Positions 1,931 to 56,393 are shown, counted from the stretch's first letter. The stretch is DNA of 64,000 nt from Gammaproteobacteria bacterium (GCA_965277405.1 OZ255726.1:2080001-2144000); one strand, 5' to 3'. A program made the numbers and translations. The notes: generated by a model not told the origin, from the letters alone.

Positions 1931-3226
1931 ATGAGTAATCGCAAAGCACATCTGCACATTGATGGCAGAGATCCAATTGAGCTAAACATCATCTCTGGAA
2001 CGCTTGGCCCTGATGTTATCGATGTCGCTCCTTTGCTTGCTGAAGGGTATTTTACCTATGACCCGGGCTTTATCGCCACCGCGTCGACCGATTCAAAGAT
2101 TACTTTTATCGATGGTGACGAAGGGATATTGCTCCACCGTGGCTATCCAATCGAGCAACTGGCAAAGGAGTCTAATTATATAGAACTGAGCTATTTGTTA
2201 CTGAATGGCGAGTTACCAACAATTGAGGAATATAACTCGTTCAAACGGCGTATTAAAAATCATACGATGGTCACAGAACGCATGGCCAAATTCATTAATG
2301 GTTTTAGAGCAGACTCGCATCCGATGGCGGTGATGTGCGGATTAGTTGGCGCATTGTCGTCTTTCTACCATGAAAATCTGGATATTTCTAACCCAGAACA
2401 TCGGTGTCAAACAGCGATTCGCATTGTCTCAAAAATGCCAACACTGGCAGCAATGGCATATAAATATTCACAAGGATTGCCGTTTATTTATCCTGATAAC
2501 AGTTTAGCTTTTGCAGAAAACTTTCTCCACATGATGTATGCAACGCCATGCGAAAAATATGTAGTTGACCCGCTGCATGCTCGGGTGATGGATGTGATTT
2601 TTATGCTCCATGCCGATCATGAGCAAAATGCTTCTACTTCAACTGTTCGTCTGGCTGGATCTACCAACGCCAACCCATATGCCTGTGTGGCATCGGGAAT
2701 TGCTGCTTTGTGGGGACCACTCCATGGCGGAGCGAACGAAGCGGTGATTTTAATGCTACAAGAAATCAACTCGGCAGATCGTATTGCTGGATTTGTCAAT
2801 CGTGCCAAAGACCCAAATGATTCATTCCGCTTGATGGGGTTTGGACATCGTGTCTATAAGAATTTTGACCCGCGCGCCAATGTGCTGCGGGATTTTGCCA
2901 AAGAGATCATTGCCAACAGACCAGAAGACGAGTTGAGCAAAATGTTTGTGATTGCCGAAGAATTAGAAAAAATCGCCTTGGAAGACCCGTATTTTATTAA
3001 AAAACAATTGTATCCAAATGTTGATTTTTACTCAGGTATCGTGTTGAGCGCTTTAGGAATTCCAACAACCATGTTCACCGCAATTTTTGCAATTGCTCGG
3101 AGTATTGGCTGGATTTCTCATTGGCATGAGATGAGTAGCAGCCCAGGAAAAATAGGCAGACCCAGACAACTGTATACAGGAGCAACGCGTCGCGATTACA
3201 TTGCTGCAGAACTGCGCTCAGCCTAA
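1931..3226 (+). CDS. gltA: Citrate synthase (type II)
   Basis: [51 protein letters not shown]; AGGA RBS upstream. Confidence 0.97.
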
Positions 3227-3520
3227 GGAAGCTCTGATTAAGTCCTTGATGGGCGAGACGGAGCAAAAACGCTGATGATAACTAGACGCAGTGCGCAGAT
3301 AATACTGGTGGTCTTGTGGGTATTGCCAAGTGCTGCAACGACGCAGCGCAGCGTTTTTTCCCGTCCTTCTATTGAATATATGATGGTTTGCCTACAAGCG
3401 GTACTTGCTGTGTTGCATCCCTTGGCGTATATGCTACGGCATGCGCTTAGCGGTTTGCGCCTTGCAATCATCAGCAATTGCCAACAAACTCTCTCTATCA
3501 GCGAGTTAATCAGAGGTTCC
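3227..3520 (+). mobile_element. Full-length MITE (294 bp) with IS5-like ends and CTAA target-site duplication
   Basis: Left TIR GGAAGCTCTGATTAAG, right TIR (rc) GGAACCTCTGATTAAC (14/16). CTAA at 3223-3226 and 3521-3524; the first CTAA contains the gltA stop. No transposase inside. Confidence 0.88.
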
Positions 3521-3525
3521 CTAAG

Positions 3526-4430
3526 TGTCAAAACTACACACGTTGTTTACAAAAACCAACAATTCTAGCAGCTGGTGGTAGATTCCCTAAAGCGGAATGT
3601 GTGCGACTGAGGTTATAGTGATTAAGATATTTTGGAAGAGCTTTGTTGCGCTCATCACTTGTTTGCTATGGCTGCGAAAATGCCCATTCCTTGCTAAGCG
3701 TTTGTATCAACCTTTCTGCTTTTCCGTTGGTCTGCGGCCTGTATGGTTTGGTAAAAACGTGCTTGATTTGACAAGCATCAAGATATCGATTTACGAACTT
3801 TGATCGATATGCAGGTCCATTGTCTGTCATCAGCCGGTTCACCGCTATTCCCAAAGATGAAAAATGCTCCAATGCTCGGTGTATAAACCCCTGAGTCGTT
3901 TCCTTTTTCTCATCAGGAAGCACCTCCACAAACGCCCATCGACTATGGTCATCTATACAAACATGGGCGCACTCAATACCATGGCCTGTATTTGCTTTTG
4001 CAGGAGCACCAAATTTATGCCCAGTGGAGTAAAACGTTGCAGTTTGTTGATGTCCAGATGCAGCATGTCACCAGGGTGTTCATGCTCATAGCGATGCGCT
4101 TTTTCTCTTTTTAAGGTCTTTTTTGTAAGGCATAGCCGTCTCAAAATTTTGGTGACAGTGGAGTATGCCAATTGCAAATACTTGGCAATGCTCCGTGCAT
4201 TCATTTGTGACTCTAAATAGAGTTTTTGGATGCGTTGAGCCAAGGTCTCAGCGAGCTTAGCTGGGGTTGAAATTGGCCTGCTGGAAAGATTGTACAGTGC
4301 AGATGTTCCACCTGATTTATAGCGTCTGAGCCACTTGTAAACAGTTAGTAGCGAATAGTATCGAAATGGCAAAATAGTTGGCTACGCGATTCACAGGGTG
4401 ATTGTCGACAAGCACCCTGTGAATCGCGTA
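3526..4430 (-). pseudogene. IS481-family transposase relic
   Basis: Pieces TVYKWLRRY..SSRP, RYEHEHPGDMLHLD, MTDNGPAYRS, KPYRPQTNGKAERLIQTL, then an in-frame TAG, then YNLSRTHSALG. A TGT-initiated end lies at 3526. Frameshifted and 5' truncated. Confidence 0.88.
4383..4430. repeat. 48-bp near-perfect palindrome
   Basis: TACGCGATTCACAGGGTG-A-TTGTCGACAA-G-CACCCTGTGAATCGCGTA; one mismatched pair. Confidence 0.95.
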
Positions 4431-20077: not shown

Positions 20078-20220
20078 ATATAGTGGCTGCAAGGCAATGG
20101 CTGCCAGATGAAGTGGGTAAATAGCAGCAGTAACAACCGCAGCGAGAGCTACCTTTAAAAATTTTAGGAGTGCAATATTATTCTTGTATGGAGGTTTAGA
20201 CCTGTAGCCACACAAATAAT

Positions 20221-21244
20221 GGCTTTATTTGAATAAATTGTTGAAATATGATATGCTACAAGTATCAATCACATCCACAATGCTCTAAATCATGAAGACC
20301 TCTGAATTTAATCAGTTAAAACAAGCAGTTAATGGGCTTTCTCCAAAGCAAAAGGCTGACTTAGAACAGCATTTAATCAATCCAGAATCGCAACCTCAAG
20401 TGCTGAAATTACTTGAACAAGCGGTACATGGATGCCCTCATTGCCAACATGACAGTACCTATAAGTGGGGCACGTCAAAAGGACGTCAGCGGTATCGTTG
20501 TCGATCATGCTTAAAAACCTATAATGCACTAACGGGTTCAGAATTGAATGGTCTGCATAAGCCTGAACTCTGGGAACAATACTGCCAAACGATGGTTGAT
20601 TCAAAATCGCTGCGCATTGCAGCAAAGGAATGCGGCATCAACCTCACCACGGCATTCACATGGCGTCATAAATTTCTTAAATTGGCTGATTTACTTATGA
20701 GCAAGCAGCTTGAAGGCATTGTCGAAATGGATGAAACTTGGTTTAAATATTCTGAAAAAGGCAGTCGCTATTTAACCACTGGCAAGCCGCGAAAACGCGG
20801 TAATAGCAAAGCATCTACAGTGAAAGCTGTTATTGGCATCGATCGAAGTGGCAACATTGTCGATCAGGTTGTAGAGCACTTTACGCTGGATCAATTACAG
20901 GCAACCTTTGTACCTAAACTCGCCGACGATCTGGTTCTCTGTACCGACGGTCATATCAATTATGAGCATCTAGCCAAGCAGAAAAATATCAATCATGTCG
21001 TGTTAAATCAACGCCTTGGTGAGCGGGTCAAAGACAAAGTTTTTCATATTCAAACGGTGAACGCTTACCACATGAGGCTCAAGCAATGGCTAGCCCCTTT
21101 TCATGGTGTTGCAACTAAAAATCTTCATAAATATTGTGGATGGTTTCGTTGGTTTGAGCTTAATAAACGGGGAGATATATCCCCTGCCAGCTTCATGAGG
21201 GATATGCTGTATACAGCATTTCAACAAACTATCAGAACATAGCC
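20221..21244 (+). mobile_element. IS1595-family insertion sequence, copy 1 (1024 bp)
   Basis: Imperfect TIRs GGCT..TTGTTGAAAT / ATTTCAACAA..AGCC; 8-bp TSD CAAATAAT at 20213-20220 and 21245-21252. Confidence 0.93.
20292..21242 (+). CDS. IS1595-family DDE transposase
   Basis: CPHC..RYRCRSC zinc ribbon, HTH, EMDETW, LCTDG, HIQTVN, FHGVATKNL. Confidence 0.93.
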   Translation: MKTSEFNQLKQAVNGLSPKQKADLEQHLINPESQPQVLKLLEQAVHGCPHCQHDSTYKWGTSKGRQRYRCRSCLKTYNALTGSELNGLHKPELWEQYCQTMVDSKSLRIAAKECGINLTTAFTWRHKFLKLADLLMSKQLEGIVEMDETWFKYSEKGSRYLTTGKPRKRGNSKASTVKAVIGIDRSGNIVDQVVEHFTLDQLQATFVPKLADDLVLCTDGHINYEHLAKQKNINHVVLNQRLGERVKDKVFHIQTVNAYHMRLKQWLAPFHGVATKNLHKYCGWFRWFELNKRGDISPASFMRDMLYTAFQQTIRT

Positions 21245-21384: not shown

Positions 21385-21516
21385 ATGGATATTATTGCAA
21401 TCATTGTATGCCTAGTACTTTTAGTTGTTTTGCTGCTTAACAGCGGTAAAACTAATGCTACGCCTACGCAACCTTTGATTAAGTCCATGATGGGCGAGAC
21501 GGAGCAAAAACGCTGA
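21385..21516 (+). CDS. Putative 43-aa single-TM protein with MITE-derived tail (below the ORF-track cutoff)
   Basis: MDIIAIIVCLVLLVVLLLNSGKTNATPTQPLIKSMMGETEQKR*, preceded by CAGGA. Confidence 0.45.
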   Translation: MDIIAIIVCLVLLVVLLLNSGKTNATPTQPLIKSMMGETEQKR

Positions 21517-21694
21517 TGATAACTAGGCGCAGCAGTTGACAATACTGGTGGTCTTGTGGGTGTTGCCAAGTGCTGCAACAACGTTAGCGCAGCGTTTTTC
21601 CCGTCCCTCTATTGAATTTACTATGGGTTTGCGCCTTGCAATCATCAGCAATTGCAGGCAAACTCGCCCCATCAGCGAGTTAATTAGCGCTTCC
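21468..21694 (+). mobile_element. MITE copy (227 bp, internal deletion relative to the 3227 copy)
   Basis: GCAACCTTTGATTAAG ... GTTAATTAGCGCTTCC followed by TTAG; interior closely matches 3227-3520. Confidence 0.88.
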
Positions 21695-21762
21695 TTAGGG
21701 CGGACTAGGCAAAATTTTAGAAAATATTGTAAATTATTTCATTGGCGGGTCGGGTATTGTAG

Positions 21763-30692: not shown

Positions 30693-31716
30693 GGCTATGT
30701 TCTGATAGTTTGTTGAAATGCTGTATACAGCATATCCCTCATGAAGCTGGCAGGGGATATATCTCCCCGTTTATTAAGCTCAAACCAACGAAACCATCCA
30801 CAATATTTATGAAGATTTTTAGTTGCAACACCATGAAAAGGGGCTAGCCATTGCTTGAGCCTCATGTGGTAAGCGTTCACCGTTTGAATATGAAAAACTT
30901 TGTCTTTGACCCGCTCACCAAGGCTTTGATTTAACACGACATGATTGATATTTTTCTGCTTGGCTAGATGCTCATAATTGATATGACCGTCGGTACAGAG
31001 AACCAGATCGTCGGCGAGTTTAGGTACAAAGGTTGCCTGTAATTGATCCAGCGTAAAGTGCTCTACAACCTGATCGACAATGTTGCCACTTCGATCGATG
31101 CCAATAACAGCTTTCACTGTAGATGCTTTGCTATTACCGCGTTTTCGCGGCTTGCCAGTGGTTAAATAGCGACTGCCTTTTTCAGAATATTTAAACCAAG
31201 TTTCATCTATTTCGACAATGCCTTCAAGCTGCTTGCTCATAAGTAAATCAGCCAATTTAAGAAATTTATGACGCCATGTGAATGCCGTGGTGAGGTTGAT
31301 GCCGCATTCCTTTGCAGCAATGCGCAGCGATTTTGAATCAACCATCGTTTGGCAGTATTGTTCCCACAGTTCAGGCTTATGCAGACCATTCAATTCTGAA
31401 CCCGTTAGTGCATTATAGGTTTTTAAGCATGATCGACAACGATACCGCTGACGTCCTTTTGACGTGCCCCACTTATAGGTACTGTCATGTTGGCAATGAG
31501 GGCATCCATGTACCGCTTGTTCAAGTAATTTCAGCACTTGAGGTTGCGATTCTGGATTGATTAAATGCTGTTCTAAGTCAGCCTTTTGCTTTAGAGAAAG
31601 CCCATTAACTGCTTGTTTTAACTGATTAAATTCAGAGGTCTTCATGATTTAGAGCATTGTGGATGTGATTGATACTTGTAGCATATCATATTTCAACAAT
31701 TTATTCAAATAGAGCC
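30693..31716 (-). mobile_element. IS1595-family insertion sequence, copy 2 (1024 bp)
   Basis: Same ends as copy 1; own 8-bp TSD AGCCGATT at 30685-30692 and 31717-31724. Confidence 0.93.
30695..31645 (-). CDS. IS1595-family DDE transposase
   Basis: Differs from copy 1 at three visible residues (P/L, M/I, R/S). Confidence 0.93.
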   Translation of the reverse strand: MKTSEFNQLKQAVNGLSLKQKADLEQHLINPESQPQVLKLLEQAVHGCPHCQHDSTYKWGTSKGRQRYRCRSCLKTYNALTGSELNGLHKPELWEQYCQTMVDSKSLRIAAKECGINLTTAFTWRHKFLKLADLLMSKQLEGIVEIDETWFKYSEKGSRYLTTGKPRKRGNSKASTVKAVIGIDRSGNIVDQVVEHFTLDQLQATFVPKLADDLVLCTDGHINYEHLAKQKNINHVVLNQSLGERVKDKVFHIQTVNAYHMRLKQWLAPFHGVATKNLHKYCGWFRWFELNKRGDISPASFMRDMLYTAFQQTIRT

Positions 31717-31988
31717 AGCCGATTATAGAAATATTTAACCAAGAATACACATTTTTTGGCCATTTTAGTTTTAAAAGAAAAATTATTGGTAGGGTAAGTA
31801 TTATTACAAAAAAATAACGCATGGCAAGAAATGTTAATGGTTCTATATATTCGAGTCAAATTTTTACAAATGAAAATCCTGACGCACATAGCAGTATAAA
31901 AATTATTGGAAGAAACAAAGAAAACACAAGATTACTATTTTTCATACAACAACCTTTTTATAACTTTAACTTATCAACGGTTCGTGAA

Positions 31989-52361: not shown

Positions 52362-52787
52362 TCAGCCTGAGTCAGCCGGTGGTTGTTTTTGAGAAAACAA
52401 AGATTGCCATGTTTCGATATTCTTATTCATAACGTCCGTCCACGCATCCATTGGATTATTGATGGGTCGATCATGAACAGAGTATAAATAATCTAGGGCT
52501 TGTTCCATATACACAGCCGTTGCCGATTGGATAGGGTTATTATAGGTGCGAATTAACTGTTGCAACATGCGTCTGGTAAACAGTTTGTGTGACTTGCCAA
52601 ACTTGCTTTCTTGTTCACTGATGATTTGTAACAAAATAGGGGCGGTTAAGTCAGATTCAGTTTTTGCATCAATGATGCGAAATTCTTCAAATTTTATGAC
52701 AAACTCGCGTATGTCTGCAAGGGTTATGTAAATACTGTCTTGAGTATCGTAAATTCTTCTGTTTGCATATTTTTTTAGTAGGCGCAT
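52362..52787 (-). CDS. phaR: PHA synthesis repressor PhaR
   Basis: KKYANRRIYDT..YITL, DAKTESDLT, LLQIISEQE. Confidence 0.9.
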   Translation of the reverse strand: MRLLKKYANRRIYDTQDSIYITLADIREFVIKFEEFRIIDAKTESDLTAPILLQIISEQESKFGKSHKLFTRRMLQQLIRTYNNPIQSATAVYMEQALDYLYSVHDRPINNPMDAWTDVMNKNIETWQSLFSQKQPPADSG

Positions 52788-52885
52788 ATTATAAATAATA
52801 TTGTGTTACCCGCCATTATACGCAATACACGATTTTGGTGTGGGTTAAATTAACAAAAAATTATGCGTATCAAGTCAAATGGTAG

Positions 52886-52916
52886 TGATTAACTCGCTAT
52901 CATGGACTTAATCAGC
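52886..52916. repeat. Eroded mini-MITE core
   Basis: TGATTAACTCGCTATCATGGACTTAATCAGC. Confidence 0.75.
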
Positions 52917-52996
52917 AGATAAAACATCAAAAAAATTGTGGTGGAATTATTTGTCTGTATAAGGTGATTTGTATGGAGGAAGTGTATGGACAAGGA

Positions 52997-53605
52997 ATGC
53001 CGAAAGCCATTACAGCATATGTTAGCTTGGTTGATGCGATAAATCAGAAGGTTGGGCAGTTTGCCATGTATCTGGTGATTGCCATGATTATCGTGCTTTT
53101 TTATGCCACGGTGGTAAAAAATTTCTTGCTGCCTTCTCTGTGGACGCTGGAAGTTTCACAATTTATTATGGTTAGCTATTATCTGCTAGGTGGCGGCTAT
53201 ACGCTGCAAAATGGCAGTCATGTACGCATGGATTTGCTATATGGCAGATGGTCGCCAACAACCAAGGCTGCGGTGGATTGTTGCACAATTTTGTTCATGA
53301 TTTTTTATTTAGTTATCTTGTTGCGCGGGGGCTTGTCTAGCACTTCGTATGCGCTTGAATATGGCGAGCGCGGGCGTTCTATCTGGCAACCTTATATAGC
53401 GCCGATCAAAATTATTGCCTGTGTCGGGATTGCGTTGATGTTGGCGCAGGCCGTGGCTGAATTATGCAAGGATATCGCCAGGGTTAAAGGCATTGAAATT
53501 GGTGTCCGACCTGCAGATGATGCTGTCAGAGCCTTGCAAGGCGAGGAACGTTCCAAGCAACCTCTGCTTAAGTCCATGATGGGCGAAACGGAGCAAAAAC
53601 AGTGA
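52997..53605 (+). CDS. TRAP small permease (DctQ-like)
   Basis: 4 TM, HVRMDLLY; the last 15 aa are MITE-derived. Confidence 0.92.
   Translation: MPKAITAYVSLVDAINQKVGQFAMYLVIAMIIVLFYATVVKNFLLPSLWTLEVSQFIMVSYYLLGGGYTLQNGSHVRMDLLYGRWSPTTKAAVDCCTILFMIFYLVILLRGGLSSTSYALEYGERGRSIWQPYIAPIKIIACVGIALMLAQAVAELCKDIARVKGIEIGVRPADDAVRALQGEERSKQPLLKSMMGETEQKQ
53557..53605 (+). mobile_element. MITE left end embedded in the dctQ/dctM junction
   Basis: GCAACCTCTGCTTAAGTCCATGATGGGCGAAACGGAGCAAAAACAGTGA closely matches 21468-21516. Confidence 0.9.
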
Positions 53606-54927
53606 GTTATACGCTTATTGCGCTGTTAATGTTCGCATCGATGATGGCTATGCTGGTTTCTGGTCAACGTGTGTTTGGAGCGATTGGTGCTGTGGCGGTG
53701 ATTGCTGCTGTTGCTCTGTGGGGCGATGGCGGCTTTGAACTTGCGTTTACCGCTTCCATGAAGCTGATGAAATGGTATCCAATGTTAACACTGCCTTTGT
53801 TTATTTATATGGGCTACATGCTTGCAGAATCTGGCATTGCCGACGATCTTTACCGCATGTTTCACGTCTGGTTTGGTAATCTAAGCGGTGGGCTGGCGAT
53901 AGGAACTGTGCTGTTGATGGTGGTGATTTCCGCTATCAATGGTCTTAGTGTTGCGGGTATGGCGATTGGTGTCAGTATTGCCCTGCCAGCATTATTACGG
54001 CGTGGCTATAACAAGATTATGGTCACTGGGGTAATACAGGCGGGGTCGTCGCTTGGAATTTTAGTGCCGCCATCGGTGGTGCTAGTGCTTTACGGCATGA
54101 TTGCGCGTCAACCAGTTTCACAATTATGGATGGCTGGTATTTTTCCAGGGCTGTTGATGGCGTCGCTGTTCATCATTTACATCGTTATCCGCTGTAAAAT
54201 TCAGCCTGAACTTGGGCCCCCATTGTCTCGTAAGGAACTTGATGAGATTAGTTTTGCAGCAAAGCTGAAATTACTGCGTGCAGGTATCCTGCCACTGATC
54301 ATCTTTTTTCTGATGACAGGCTTGTTCTTGATGGGAAAGACTTCGCTAGTGGAAAGCGCTGCAGTTGGTGCTGTCTCTGTGACCATTGCTGCAATTATTC
54401 AGGGGTATTTTAGTAAAAAGGTTTTTGACGACACTTTGCGTAAAACGCTGAATATCTCCTGCATGTTTATGTGGATTATTCTCGCCGCTCTTTGTTTTGG
54501 TGCGGTGTTTGATGGGCTTGGCGCGGTGAATGCAATCAAGCTGTTTTTCCTTGAGCAAATGGGTCTTGAGCCATGGGAAGTGCTTATCTTGATGCAACTT
54601 TCATTCTTATTGATGGGCACGTTTCTGGATGACACCGCCATGCTGGTTATTGTTGCGCCGCTGTATATTCCCTTGGTTAAGGTGCTTGGTTTTGATCTAA
54701 TCTGGTACGGAATACTGTATACAATTACCAGCCAGATTGCGTATATGACGCCACCATTTGGTTATAATTTATTTCTAATGCGGGCGATGGCTCCGCCAGA
54801 GGTTTCGCTGAGTGACATTTATCGTTCCATTGTACCGTTTGTGGCAATCATGATATTTGCACTTGTAGTTGTGATGGTATTGCCACAAACTGCCTTGTGG
54901 CTACCTAATTACTACTATGGAAATTAG
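53602..54927 (+). CDS. TRAP large permease (DctM-like)
   Basis: LPLFIYMG, LGILVPPS, TPPFGYNLF; about 12 TM. Confidence 0.94.
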   Translation: MSYTLIALLMFASMMAMLVSGQRVFGAIGAVAVIAAVALWGDGGFELAFTASMKLMKWYPMLTLPLFIYMGYMLAESGIADDLYRMFHVWFGNLSGGLAIGTVLLMVVISAINGLSVAGMAIGVSIALPALLRRGYNKIMVTGVIQAGSSLGILVPPSVVLVLYGMIARQPVSQLWMAGIFPGLLMASLFIIYIVIRCKIQPELGPPLSRKELDEISFAAKLKLLRAGILPLIIFFLMTGLFLMGKTSLVESAAVGAVSVTIAAIIQGYFSKKVFDDTLRKTLNISCMFMWIILAALCFGAVFDGLGAVNAIKLFFLEQMGLEPWEVLILMQLSFLLMGTFLDDTAMLVIVAPLYIPLVKVLGFDLIWYGILYTITSQIAYMTPPFGYNLFLMRAMAPPEVSLSDIYRSIVPFVAIMIFALVVVMVLPQTALWLPNYYYGN

Positions 54928-54995
54928 GTATGGAAATTAGGCAGTAAACCCTAGCGCTGCAGCCATAAGCAGCACCATAACATAAGGAGAACGCT

Positions 54996-56054
54996 ATGAC
55001 TAACAGAAGGAATTTTATAAAAAATACTGGTCTTGCCAGTGTTGCAGCAGGGGCGATACTTGCAGCCCCGGCAATTCGAGCGCAACCTGCTAAAATCACT
55101 TGGCGCTTGCAGACCTATGCCGGTCCTGCATTGGCTGAACATGTCATCAAACCTATGATTGACTCATTCAACAAAGTTGCCGCTGGTCAGATGGAAATCC
55201 AGCTTTTCACAGCTGACCAGCTCGTGCCGACTGGTGAATTGTTTCGCGCCATGCAAAATGGGGTGATTGATGCAGTACAATCAGACGAAGATTCTATAGC
55301 AGCTCCTGTAGACGTATCGGTTTTTGGCGGATATTTCCCGTTTGCAACCCGTTACAGCCTCGATGTGCCAGTGCTTTTCAATCAATATGGTTTGAAAGAA
55401 ATCTGGGAAGAAGCTTATAGCGAAGTAAAAAATGTGACATGGCTTTCAGCAGGTTCTTGGGATCCTTGCCATTTCAATACAAATAAGCCAATTCGTTCGC
55501 TTGCAGATTTGCAAGGTTTGCGCGTGTATACCTTCCCAACTGCTGGACGCTTTCTCTCACAGTTTGGTGTTGTGCCAGTTGAAATTCCGTATGAAGATGC
55601 TGAAGTTGCGGTGCAAACTGGCGAACTTGACGGCATGGCATGGTCTGGCATTACCGAAGATTATACCGTTGGCTGGGCTGACGTTACCAAATATTTTCTC
55701 ACCAATAATATCGCTGGTGCATGGATTGGTTCGTTCTTTGCAAATACGGATAAATGGAACGAAGTACCGCCACATCTTCAGGAATTATTCCGCCTTTGCA
55801 TGGATTCATCGCATTACTACCGTCAGCATTGGTATTGGGGCGGCGAAGCAAAACTGCGTACTCTTGCAGCCGATCAAGGACGTAAACTTGAGCTAACCTC
55901 CATTCCTGATGAAGAATGGGCACAAGTTGAAACCAAAGCGCGTCAGTTCTGGGATGACATTGCCAAAGGCAGCGAGCGCAGTGCCCGTGTTGTGAAAATC
56001 CTTAAAGAATATTCAGCCGTTATGGGCAAAGCAGGCAAACCGTACCGTAGCTAA
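54996..56054 (+). CDS. TRAP substrate-binding protein (DctP/TakP-like), Tat signal
   Basis: NRRNFI, AAPAI, WRLQT, PIRSLADLQG, TGELDG; AAGGAG RBS. Confidence 0.93.
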   Translation: MTNRRNFIKNTGLASVAAGAILAAPAIRAQPAKITWRLQTYAGPALAEHVIKPMIDSFNKVAAGQMEIQLFTADQLVPTGELFRAMQNGVIDAVQSDEDSIAAPVDVSVFGGYFPFATRYSLDVPVLFNQYGLKEIWEEAYSEVKNVTWLSAGSWDPCHFNTNKPIRSLADLQGLRVYTFPTAGRFLSQFGVVPVEIPYEDAEVAVQTGELDGMAWSGITEDYTVGWADVTKYFLTNNIAGAWIGSFFANTDKWNEVPPHLQELFRLCMDSSHYYRQHWYWGGEAKLRTLAADQGRKLELTSIPDEEWAQVETKARQFWDDIAKGSERSARVVKILKEYSAVMGKAGKPYRS

Positions 56055-56067
56055 ATTGCTCTACAGA

Positions 56068-56096
56068 CTTAAACAGAGCTTCCTTCTGGAAGCTCT
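56068..56096 (+). terminator. Hairpin after dctP formed by back-to-back MITE ends
   Basis: CTTAAAC-AGAGCTTCC-TTCT-GGAAGCTCT. Confidence 0.55.
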
Positions 56097-56301
56097 ATTC
56101 TATGCGAGTCTAAGCAGATGAAAGAGCGGATAGAATAATTGCTATTCTAAAAAAAACGCAAAATAAGTACGTCATCGCCTCCAATATTTTTATCAAAGTA
56201 CTGATTGATGAAAAACATCACTCCTTGTTTTCTTATGAGATTTTCTACATAGCACAGAAAAAAGGTCATAGCATTGGAGCTGTACGTGAACATCGACATA
56301 A

Positions 56302-56324
56302 GGAAGCTCTGATTAAGTCGCTCC
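56302..56324 (+). mobile_element. Solitary MITE end upstream of sdhC
   Basis: GGAAGCTCTGATTAAGTCGCTCC preceded by ATAA. Confidence 0.82.
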
Positions 56325-56393
56325 CTTATGTCGATTGGTTTGTTTTTTTTGTTTGGCTGTGTAGTATCTTCACCATTGTTTTAGGAGTGTTTT

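Follow-up and report, generated by a model that had tools for sequence, protein, structure and literature searches.

A trimmed MITE left end forms the coding tail of dctQ and carries a putative ribosome-binding motif for dctM in a gammaproteobacterial TRAP transporter operon

Stop/start overlaps of the ATGA or GTGA type are an established form of translational coupling in operons, with the Shine-Dalgarno sequence of the downstream gene lying inside the upstream gene. Such an overlap joins dctQ and dctM (GTG at 53602-53604, TGA at 53603-53605) in a TRAP transporter operon of a gammaproteobacterium, at a place where the last codons of dctQ resemble the end of a mobile element. The locus raises the question of which parts of this junction came from the element and which were already there. 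A reading of the window (the whole stretch of 64,000 nt that was analysed, GCA_965277405.1 OZ255726.1:2080001-2144000), made from the sequence alone, had credited a single MITE fragment with the peptide tail, the stop codon, the ribosome-binding site and the coupled start. The GTGA overlap that it described is present. Our analysis assigns to the element the tail and the only Shine-Dalgarno-like motif at a working distance from dctM; the stop, the start and their overlap are most likely native.

The host genome is a single contig of 2.17 Mb with 44.8% G+C. Among the genomes compared none was closer kin than the same class, and the best DctM identity among 40 relatives was 35%. The TRAP operon occupies 52997-56054 in the order dctQ, dctM, dctP (Table 1), and all three subunits (PF04290, PF06808 and PF03480) are full length with scores above the Pfam cut-offs. 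The DctQ domain spans residues 41-172 of 213, the DctM domain spans residues 11-429 of 441, and DctM is as long as its nearest homologs, in agreement with the earlier statement that both genes are intact. Two alternative starts exist for dctQ, a GTG at 52964 (the mechanical ORF) and an ATG at 52973 (the database call, 210 aa); DctQ homologs, of which a protein search found 2876, begin MP(K/D)AI... and align to the ATG at 52997. Matches to solved structures of TRAP Q subunits were weak (7qha_A, E 0.062; 9pym_A, E 0.074) and were not used. The N-terminus of DctP carries an RRNFIK motif, presumably a twin-arginine signal. A scan of 52750-56250 gave 7 promoter and 4 terminator sites (shuffles: 7.2 and 4.4); no site lies at the dctQ-dctM junction. 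The RNA of 53530-53640 folded at -30.7 kcal/mol (z -0.97) and 30 of 200 shuffles folded as well, which indicates no meaningful structure in this segment. Mini palindromic units of about 35 nt, each made of two MITE inverted-repeat tips placed head to head, were seen at 52886-52920, 56062-56098 and 56296-56330; they flank the operon just 5' of dctQ and just 3' of dctP, and the unit after dctP folds as a GGAAGCTCT/AGAGCTTCC hairpin.

The end of dctQ matches the left end of the MITE over 53552-53600. Against the reference copy (window 3216-3530), 36 of 39 positions in 53562-53600 are identical (E 1e-9), and 214 left ends covering the core were collected across the 2.17 Mb of the genome. In repeat family D1/D3 the copies at 3216 and 21457 line up in register with 53546-53621 and 53554-53589, and the 13-mer ACGGAGCAAAAAC occurs three times in the window versus 0.09 expected, a count reached in 0 of 100 shuffles. 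The dctQ-frame codons of 53558-53605 read QPLLKSMMGETEQKQ*, and the earlier statement that the last DctQ residues are encoded by the matching stretch holds. Homology to the MITE ends at 53600, beyond which the other copies run on in unlike fashion as GCTGATGA.... The element match claimed earlier over 49 bp was thus confirmed in kind and shortened in extent: the best-supported element part is 45 nt, and the final CAG-TGA is most likely native. The boundaries of the remnant were set from the protein ends and are uncertain by 1-3 nt, a 42-nt reading being also possible. Only these left ~45 nt are found at dctQ, with the second inverted repeat missing, so the locus holds a remnant and not a complete, mobilisable copy. 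The left flank of the remnant reads CCAA, not CTAA, and its right flank is lost. The remnant differs from the element consensus to an ordinary degree (about 4/45). The junction is identical, with no indel variant, in contigs of three runs from one study, runs that may be the window's own source. The DctQ of a second assembly (P0241) has the same tail (2 residues differ). The remnant keeps its frame, and the overlap is preserved.

The repeat to which the remnant belongs is about 300 bp long. Merging gave 271 elements genome-wide, 175 of them two-ended and about 285-300 bp each. The internal ORF has mostly 30-33 codons and a transposase gene is absent from the element. A partner IS of about 1.2 kb with GGAATCTCTGATTAAGTCC ends shares only its ~20-nt ends with the MITE; its 315-aa transposase combines DDE_Tnp_1 with DUF772, a pair of domains that we take to be the mark of the IS5 family. 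Full MITE copies are flanked by YTAR-like 4-bp target duplications of the CTAA/TTAG type. Because of the ends shared with this IS, the copy number and the 4-bp duplications, the repeat is, as judged from its sequence features, a MITE of an IS5-type element. The outer TAA of the reference copy (3224-3226) is the stop of a 431-aa ORF (1931-3226). The second copy of the window is internally deleted, and internal deletions are common in the family.

Several translation-related motifs are found in the MITE. Each of the three frames of its left end contains a stop (at element positions 3/18, 14 and 52), its ACGGAG is kept in 166 of the 214 left ends wherever they lie, and GGAG-N11-ATG occurs in it as part of a TGATG arrangement. 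Read outward, both ends are ...CAGAGGTTCC, placing an SD-like AGAGG 5-10 nt before whatever follows, and the YTAR target contains a stop codon. Two candidate roles for these motifs were ruled out. The GGAG is not the ribosome-binding site of the parent IS's transposase, as the IS has only its short ends in common with the MITE. The ATG after the MITE's TGA does not open a conserved protein: TGATG is found in 168 of 214 left ends, and 34 of the ORFs have fewer than 10 codons, most of the others being of the short length given above.

Other observations concern the mobile elements more broadly. The IS5-type partner occurs in head-to-tail tandem, and also immediately next to MITE copies, at G000:C1:1248300-1250860 and 2029290-2030600. 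The window itself holds a different IS of 1025 bp and IS1595 type, unrelated to the MITE, at 20220-21244 and 30693-31717; the two copies are 99% alike, lie in inverted orientation and bracket 9.4 kb in a composite-transposon-like layout. Of 476 metagenome stretches scanned, 181 fitted a query peptide pattern but coded for no DctQ relative. One of these patterns was the MITE-derived LKSMMGET, and some of the 181 stretches may be MITE copies in other samples.

The closest relatives in a protein search share 91% identity with DctM and 81% with DctQ. Counted from the shared Met, the window's DctQ has 202 aa versus 187 in these relatives, exactly 15 more, and there is no further indel between it and the nearest relative, P0122. 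The nearest DctQ cluster has ten members, and the nine that are full length (186-187 aa) end ...QGExxS(Q/L)*, for example QGEESSQ, QGEGKSQ, QGEANSQ and QGEESSL. The window's DctQ ends ...QGEERS followed by KQPLLKSMMGETEQK and Q*. The terminal residue in the relatives is Gln in 8 of 9 and Leu in 1 of 9, both of which fit xxA/xxG-TGA. As the protein alignment shows, the 15-residue difference sits at the end of the DctQ tail, and we regard the element origin of this tail as shown. The tail ranges in length from 168 to about 200 aa (as full protein lengths) among homologs and is poorly conserved; the added peptide is therefore probably tolerated rather than useful.

DctM homologs have 440-441 aa at 100% coverage, the nearest having 441 aa like that of the window. 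The N-terminus is MSY, MSF or MGY in 43 of the 44 best homologs (the window's own included), the exception, P0009, having been called 4 residues shorter. Given this conservation, comparison with homologs identifies the start at 53602 as the conserved start of the family and not a new one. This N-terminus and the Q/L ends of the relatives' DctQ speak against the proposal that the start codon was newly created within the element. In the dctM frame there is no start codon between the TAA at 53569-53571 and the GTG. In two relatives (PCI05416.1/PCI05415.1 and MFK5977619.1/MFK5977620.1) a 187-aa DctQ and a 441-aa DctM stand under consecutive accessions, which we read as adjacent genes.

We fetched 80 orthologous loci from genome contigs at 66-79% identity and read 79 of them, L047 being dropped for its cut N-terminus; metagenome contigs gave 80 further loci at 49-65%, and the 81-91% relatives were in neither contig set. 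An NTGA stop/start overlap with Ser-Tyr codons directly after it is found in 51/79 of these MITE-free loci and a 1-nt overlap (TGATG or TAATG) in 24/79, so that 75/79 have an overlap of either kind; two pairs are adjacent, one is separated by 1 nt and one by 27 nt. The start codon of dctM is ATG in 68 loci, GTG in 7 and TTG in 4, the start having been extrapolated by 1-3 codons in 6 loci, all of them GTG calls. Across these loci the 4-nt overlap prevails in this TRAP family. The idea of a junction made by the element is not supported by this comparison, as a similar junction is largely present in orthologs that lack the MITE.

The bases that precede TGA provide a further criterion. The pattern ...C-NN-TGA was fitted by 159 of the 214 left ends, and the other 55 were left out of the pair count. 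The pair NN is GC in 149, AC in 4, GA in 3, TC in 1, GT in 1 and AG in 1, the single AG being that of the dctQ remnant; the others read ...AAAAACGCTGA. It was correctly noted from the sequence that other copies differ at this point. Because relatives end in Q or L, NTGA is usual in orthologs and AG occurs in only 1/159 MITE copies, the terminal CAG-TGA, and hence the GTG start, is most likely native and not made inside the element. On the simplest reading, the GTG of dctM would consist of the G of the Gln codon and the TG of the stop, built like the ATGA/GTGA overlaps of the orthologs.

Table 1. Features of the dctQ-dctM junction, its operon and the MITE copies of the window.
Feature	Coordinates (window)	Strand	Evidence and remarks
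dctQ, TRAP small membrane subunit	52997..53605	+	Pfam DctQ PF04290, E 3.9e-19; 202 aa from ATG 52997
dctM, TRAP large membrane subunit	53602..54927	+	Pfam DctM PF06808, E 6.5e-61; 441 aa, GTG start
dctP, periplasmic solute-binding subunit	54996..56054	+	Pfam DctP PF03480, E 3.6e-23; 352 aa
GAGG in native Gly-Glu-Glu codons of dctQ, probable original Shine-Dalgarno	53543..53546	+	55 nt from start; 10 nt without insert
In-frame 45-nt MITE left-end remnant (terminal inverted repeat and subterminal sequence), encodes KQPLLKSMMGETEQK	53555..53599	+	214 genomic left ends; relatives 15 aa shorter
GGAG inside remnant, presumed Shine-Dalgarno of dctM	53590..53593	+	8 nt before GTG; motif only
Last dctQ codon CAG (Gln) and TGA, most likely native	53600..53605	+	relatives' Q/L ends; NTGA in orthologs; AG rare in MITEs
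Full-length reference MITE copy, including CTAA-type duplications	3222..3525	+	repeat search and alignment
Second MITE copy of the window, internally deleted	21463..21699	+	repeat search and alignment

The spacing of GGAG to GTG was as the sequence-only reading had given it (Table 1). Within -20 to -1 of the dctM start, the element's GGAG is the only occurrence of GGAG, GAGG or AGGA. One of these motifs is found at a 4-13 nt spacer in 53/79 orthologs, with a mode of 7-8 nt and a location inside the dctQ tail, and the 3' end of the 16S rRNA keeps the anti-SD CACCTCC. The QGE(E) residues whose codons contain the native GAGG are conserved in the nearest DctQ relatives, and by its position this GAGG is the probable original Shine-Dalgarno of dctM. 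Since the element's GGAG is the sole motif in 20 nt, has a spacer of 8, faces a retained anti-SD and accompanies a native GAGG displaced to 55 nt, a putative takeover by the GGAG as the Shine-Dalgarno of dctM is a reasonable reading of these motifs. The presence of GGAG at the junction is not itself a sign of selection, because ACGGAG is conserved in left ends everywhere, and GGAG may be dispensable because overlap junctions can reinitiate without a Shine-Dalgarno.

These reservations lead to the alternative that the remnant, with the same structure, is a neutral passenger without any role, DctM being made by termination-reinitiation or from weak upstream motifs and the spacing of GGAG being coincidental. 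We hold this to be possible, if somewhat doubtful. It draws on the 26/79 orthologs without GGAG, GAGG or AGGA at 4-13 nt, on the conservation of GGAG in most copies anywhere, and on another truncated left end, which lies next to a gene start with its GGAG 22 nt away (G000 486653). This other remnant, of about 61 nt (G000:C1:486653-486716; L190 654-717), fills the gap between two genes of the same direction: the outer TAA of the element is the stop of the upstream ORF, and the ATG of a 316-aa ORF (MILVTGATGFVG...) follows 4 nt after the break. A passive role at dctQ-dctM is countered by the 8-nt spacer, which is the modal value in orthologs, by the displacement of the native motif, and by a deletion endpoint that restores both frame and overlap, from which we infer selection on the junction.

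How often do genes of this genome end in the MITE? At least 100 open codons run into 49 of the 214 left ends. Among these 49 ORFs, the target duplication provides the stop (TAA/TAG) for 15, the TGA of position 14 ends 13, the TAA of position 18 ends 5, and the TGA of element position 52-54 ends 8, dctQ included, after ...(E/K)(A/P)LIKSMMGETEKKR. The seven others in the frame of dctQ with the ...LIKSMMGETEKKR tail end at 112716, 286265, 291233, 1008026, 1531571, 1593298 and 1616839 (G000:C1). A Pfam scan of these seven together with one ORF that has a position-61 stop recognised five of the 8 (secretin, ABC ATPase, rhodanese, aspartate/ornithine carbamoyltransferase and BolA) and left three without a family. 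At gene ends, YTAR sites with a stop codon in them appear to be the targets of the MITE. Moreover, 14 of the 175 two-ended copies lie between two long ORFs of the same direction; the upstream ORF terminates in or at one end of the copy, and the start of the downstream ORF is at most 22 nt from the other end. With the same element tail at the end of seven other ORFs and MITEs in about 14 other tight junctions, the description of dctQ-dctM as the clearest case of exaptation was overstated.

One of these 14 copies sits in a paralogous dctP-dctQ-dctM operon (identified by Pfam), where a full MITE lies on the minus strand at G000:C1:1621285-1621580 (L192 about 1786-2081). It is placed, with a CTAA duplication, exactly in a former TAC-TAA-TG-GAA (TAATG) overlap. 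The paralogous dctQ still ends TAC-TAA, and its dctM starts at the duplicated CTA-ATG with the right-repeat AGAGG 7 nt upstream. By analogy, this junction is plausibly a picture of the state of dctQ-dctM before trimming. The DctM paralog beside this MITE (G000:C1:1619741-1621270) has 515 aa; the window's DctM aligns to it in two parts that share a single open frame, a pattern suggestive of about 46 additional in-frame residues in the middle of the protein. A bolder proposal is that the entire MITE family is made so as to do no harm, or even to be of use, in tight junctions, so that insertions into overlaps keep both genes translated. We consider this unlikely; if it were true, the dctQ-dctM remnant would be an element trimmed by selection to restore coupling, using its own GGAG.

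Our preferred account, which we consider probable as a whole, is that a MITE inserted near the end of dctQ and was trimmed in frame to ~45 nt, with the native overlap kept and the element's GGAG taking over. In this scenario, the ~300-bp non-autonomous IS5-type MITE would have inserted a few bases before the dctQ stop, at a YTAR-like target (in most cases CTAA or TTAG). With TCTAAG as the native sequence, the target would be CTAA and the net gain 42 nt; the 45-nt reading would need no such site. Because the left flank is CCAA, transposition at this exact site would require 1-2 later substitutions or a different native sequence. After the insertion DctQ would have terminated at the TGA of the element, with dctM displaced to some 250-300 nt from that TGA. 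Subsequent loss of the DNA between the A-run (element position ~49) and the native CAG would then have left ~45 nt of the left end, restoring the reading frame and the stop/start overlap and adding the 15 residues to a DctQ tail that is presumably tolerant of change. As a result dctQ would run back into its own last codon and stop, with CA-GTG-A as the original 4-nt overlap. The insert would have shifted the native GAGG from ~10 to 55 nt, and the element's GGAG, now 8 nt before GTG, would most likely act as a Shine-Dalgarno helping ribosomes that finish dctQ to start dctM. The order of events, the selection for an overlap-restoring deletion and the use of GGAG are what we infer from the arrangement of the locus. 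The left ends at G000:C1:184923 and 1761686 likewise break where the dctQ remnant does, at element position 49-50 after the A-run, and this break point may be a deletion hotspot.

Instead of being left behind by deletion, the remnant could be a short piece copied in by repair, 45 nt taken from one of the ~200 MITE copies as break-repair filler or by gene conversion. Such an origin, which we judge improbable, would suit the left boundary without a recognisable target duplication (CCAA), the insert length that is an exact multiple of three, and the two truncated left ends that break near the same A-run. It sits poorly with the first base of the piece being the true outer end of the element, as expected of a transposition junction; full MITEs do enter gene junctions, the paralogous dctQ/dctM overlap among them, and internally deleted copies are common. 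Insertion followed by deletion is our favored route to the remnant.

The junction TGA falls exactly at the position of the element's own TGA (52-54), and it is possible that the TGA is of element origin or that the deletion was guided by C..TGA microhomology. In its full form, the view that the element supplied everything holds that tail, TGA and GGAG all belong to the MITE and that the start was newly made by a GCTGA to AGTGA mutation. The canonical position of the TGA, which ends seven other ORFs in the same frame, and the agreement of 4/6 bases of 53600-53605 with the element speak for it. It would, however, require two substitutions found in 0 of the other 158 patterned copies, and chance would have to recreate the ancestral terminal Gln as well as a start at the conserved DctM N-terminus, before native Ser-Tyr codons, at a junction whose MITE-free orthologs already have the overlap; we rate it as quite unlikely. 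Chance resemblance, an assembly artefact or derivation of the MITE end from dctQ, for which only the short match length speaks, can be dismissed almost entirely in view of the E value of 1e-9, the motif count reached in 0/100 shuffles, 214 copies versus one junction, relatives without the remnant peptide, and the contigs of three runs (possibly the source data) that carry the junction unchanged.

Comparable elements are found in other bacteria. The Correia elements of Neisseria are abundant MITEs of ~100-150 bp that lie at gene ends and between co-transcribed genes and affect expression; their known effects involve promoters and RNA-processing sites, not a coding tail plus Shine-Dalgarno. They are unrelated to the dctQ MITE in sequence and transposase family. 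In Coxiella burnetii, QMITE1 and QMITE2 overlap the 3' ends of functional genes, transporters included, and provide last residues and/or the stop (PMC5896051); in one case the overlap with a proline/betaine transporter gene is 49 bp, and in one strain EnhC is longer by 33 aa (PMC5896051). These QMITEs are mostly whole and lie after the gene (PMC5896051). The dctQ remnant is trimmed and lies inside a stop/start overlap, an arrangement of which the available part of the QMITE text gives no example (PMC5896051). The available part of the QMITE text mentions neither a Shine-Dalgarno nor the supply of a ribosome-binding site, in contrast to the dctQ remnant with its GGAG (PMC5896051). Pneumococcal BOX repeats lie at the extreme 3' end and encode the stop in 36 of 58 overlapping CDSs, and they also form 5' and 3' adducts to operons (PMC3049150). 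BOX is a modular repeat whose candidate ORFs are, in the part of that article available, without a good Shine-Dalgarno, and the dctQ element is an IS5-type MITE (PMC3049150). The Rickettsia palindromic elements are small in-frame repeats that add a conserved peptide to coding genes, and according to a 2024 review it is "not unusual" for intragenic MITEs to produce in-frame fusions (PMC10969869). They insert whole and inside genes, whereas at dctQ one end survives, at the last codons (PMC10969869). Neither "ribosome" nor "start codon" appears in the accessible text of that review (PMC10969869).

MITE-encoded gene tails and stops are thus already known in other bacteria, and dctQ-dctM presents no new mechanism. 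In usual ATGA/GTGA coupling the Shine-Dalgarno lies in native coding sequence, whereas at dctQ-dctM the SD-like motif lies in mobile-element sequence; within the limited literature searched, we found no paper linking translational coupling with a miniature inverted-repeat element. What is new is a small point, a trimmed remnant within a coupled junction that carries the only Shine-Dalgarno-like motif. The junction illustrates how insertions at gene ends are accommodated, with no gene lost, in a genome crowded with MITEs (about 270 copies and fragments across 2.17 Mb). A presumably tolerant tail has gained a short peptide, the element would replace a displaced ribosome-binding motif, and the operon keeps its original overlap. 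Together with the paralogous operon that holds a full MITE, the dctQ-dctM remnant offers a natural before-and-after pair bearing on the translational coupling of the TRAP Q and M subunits.
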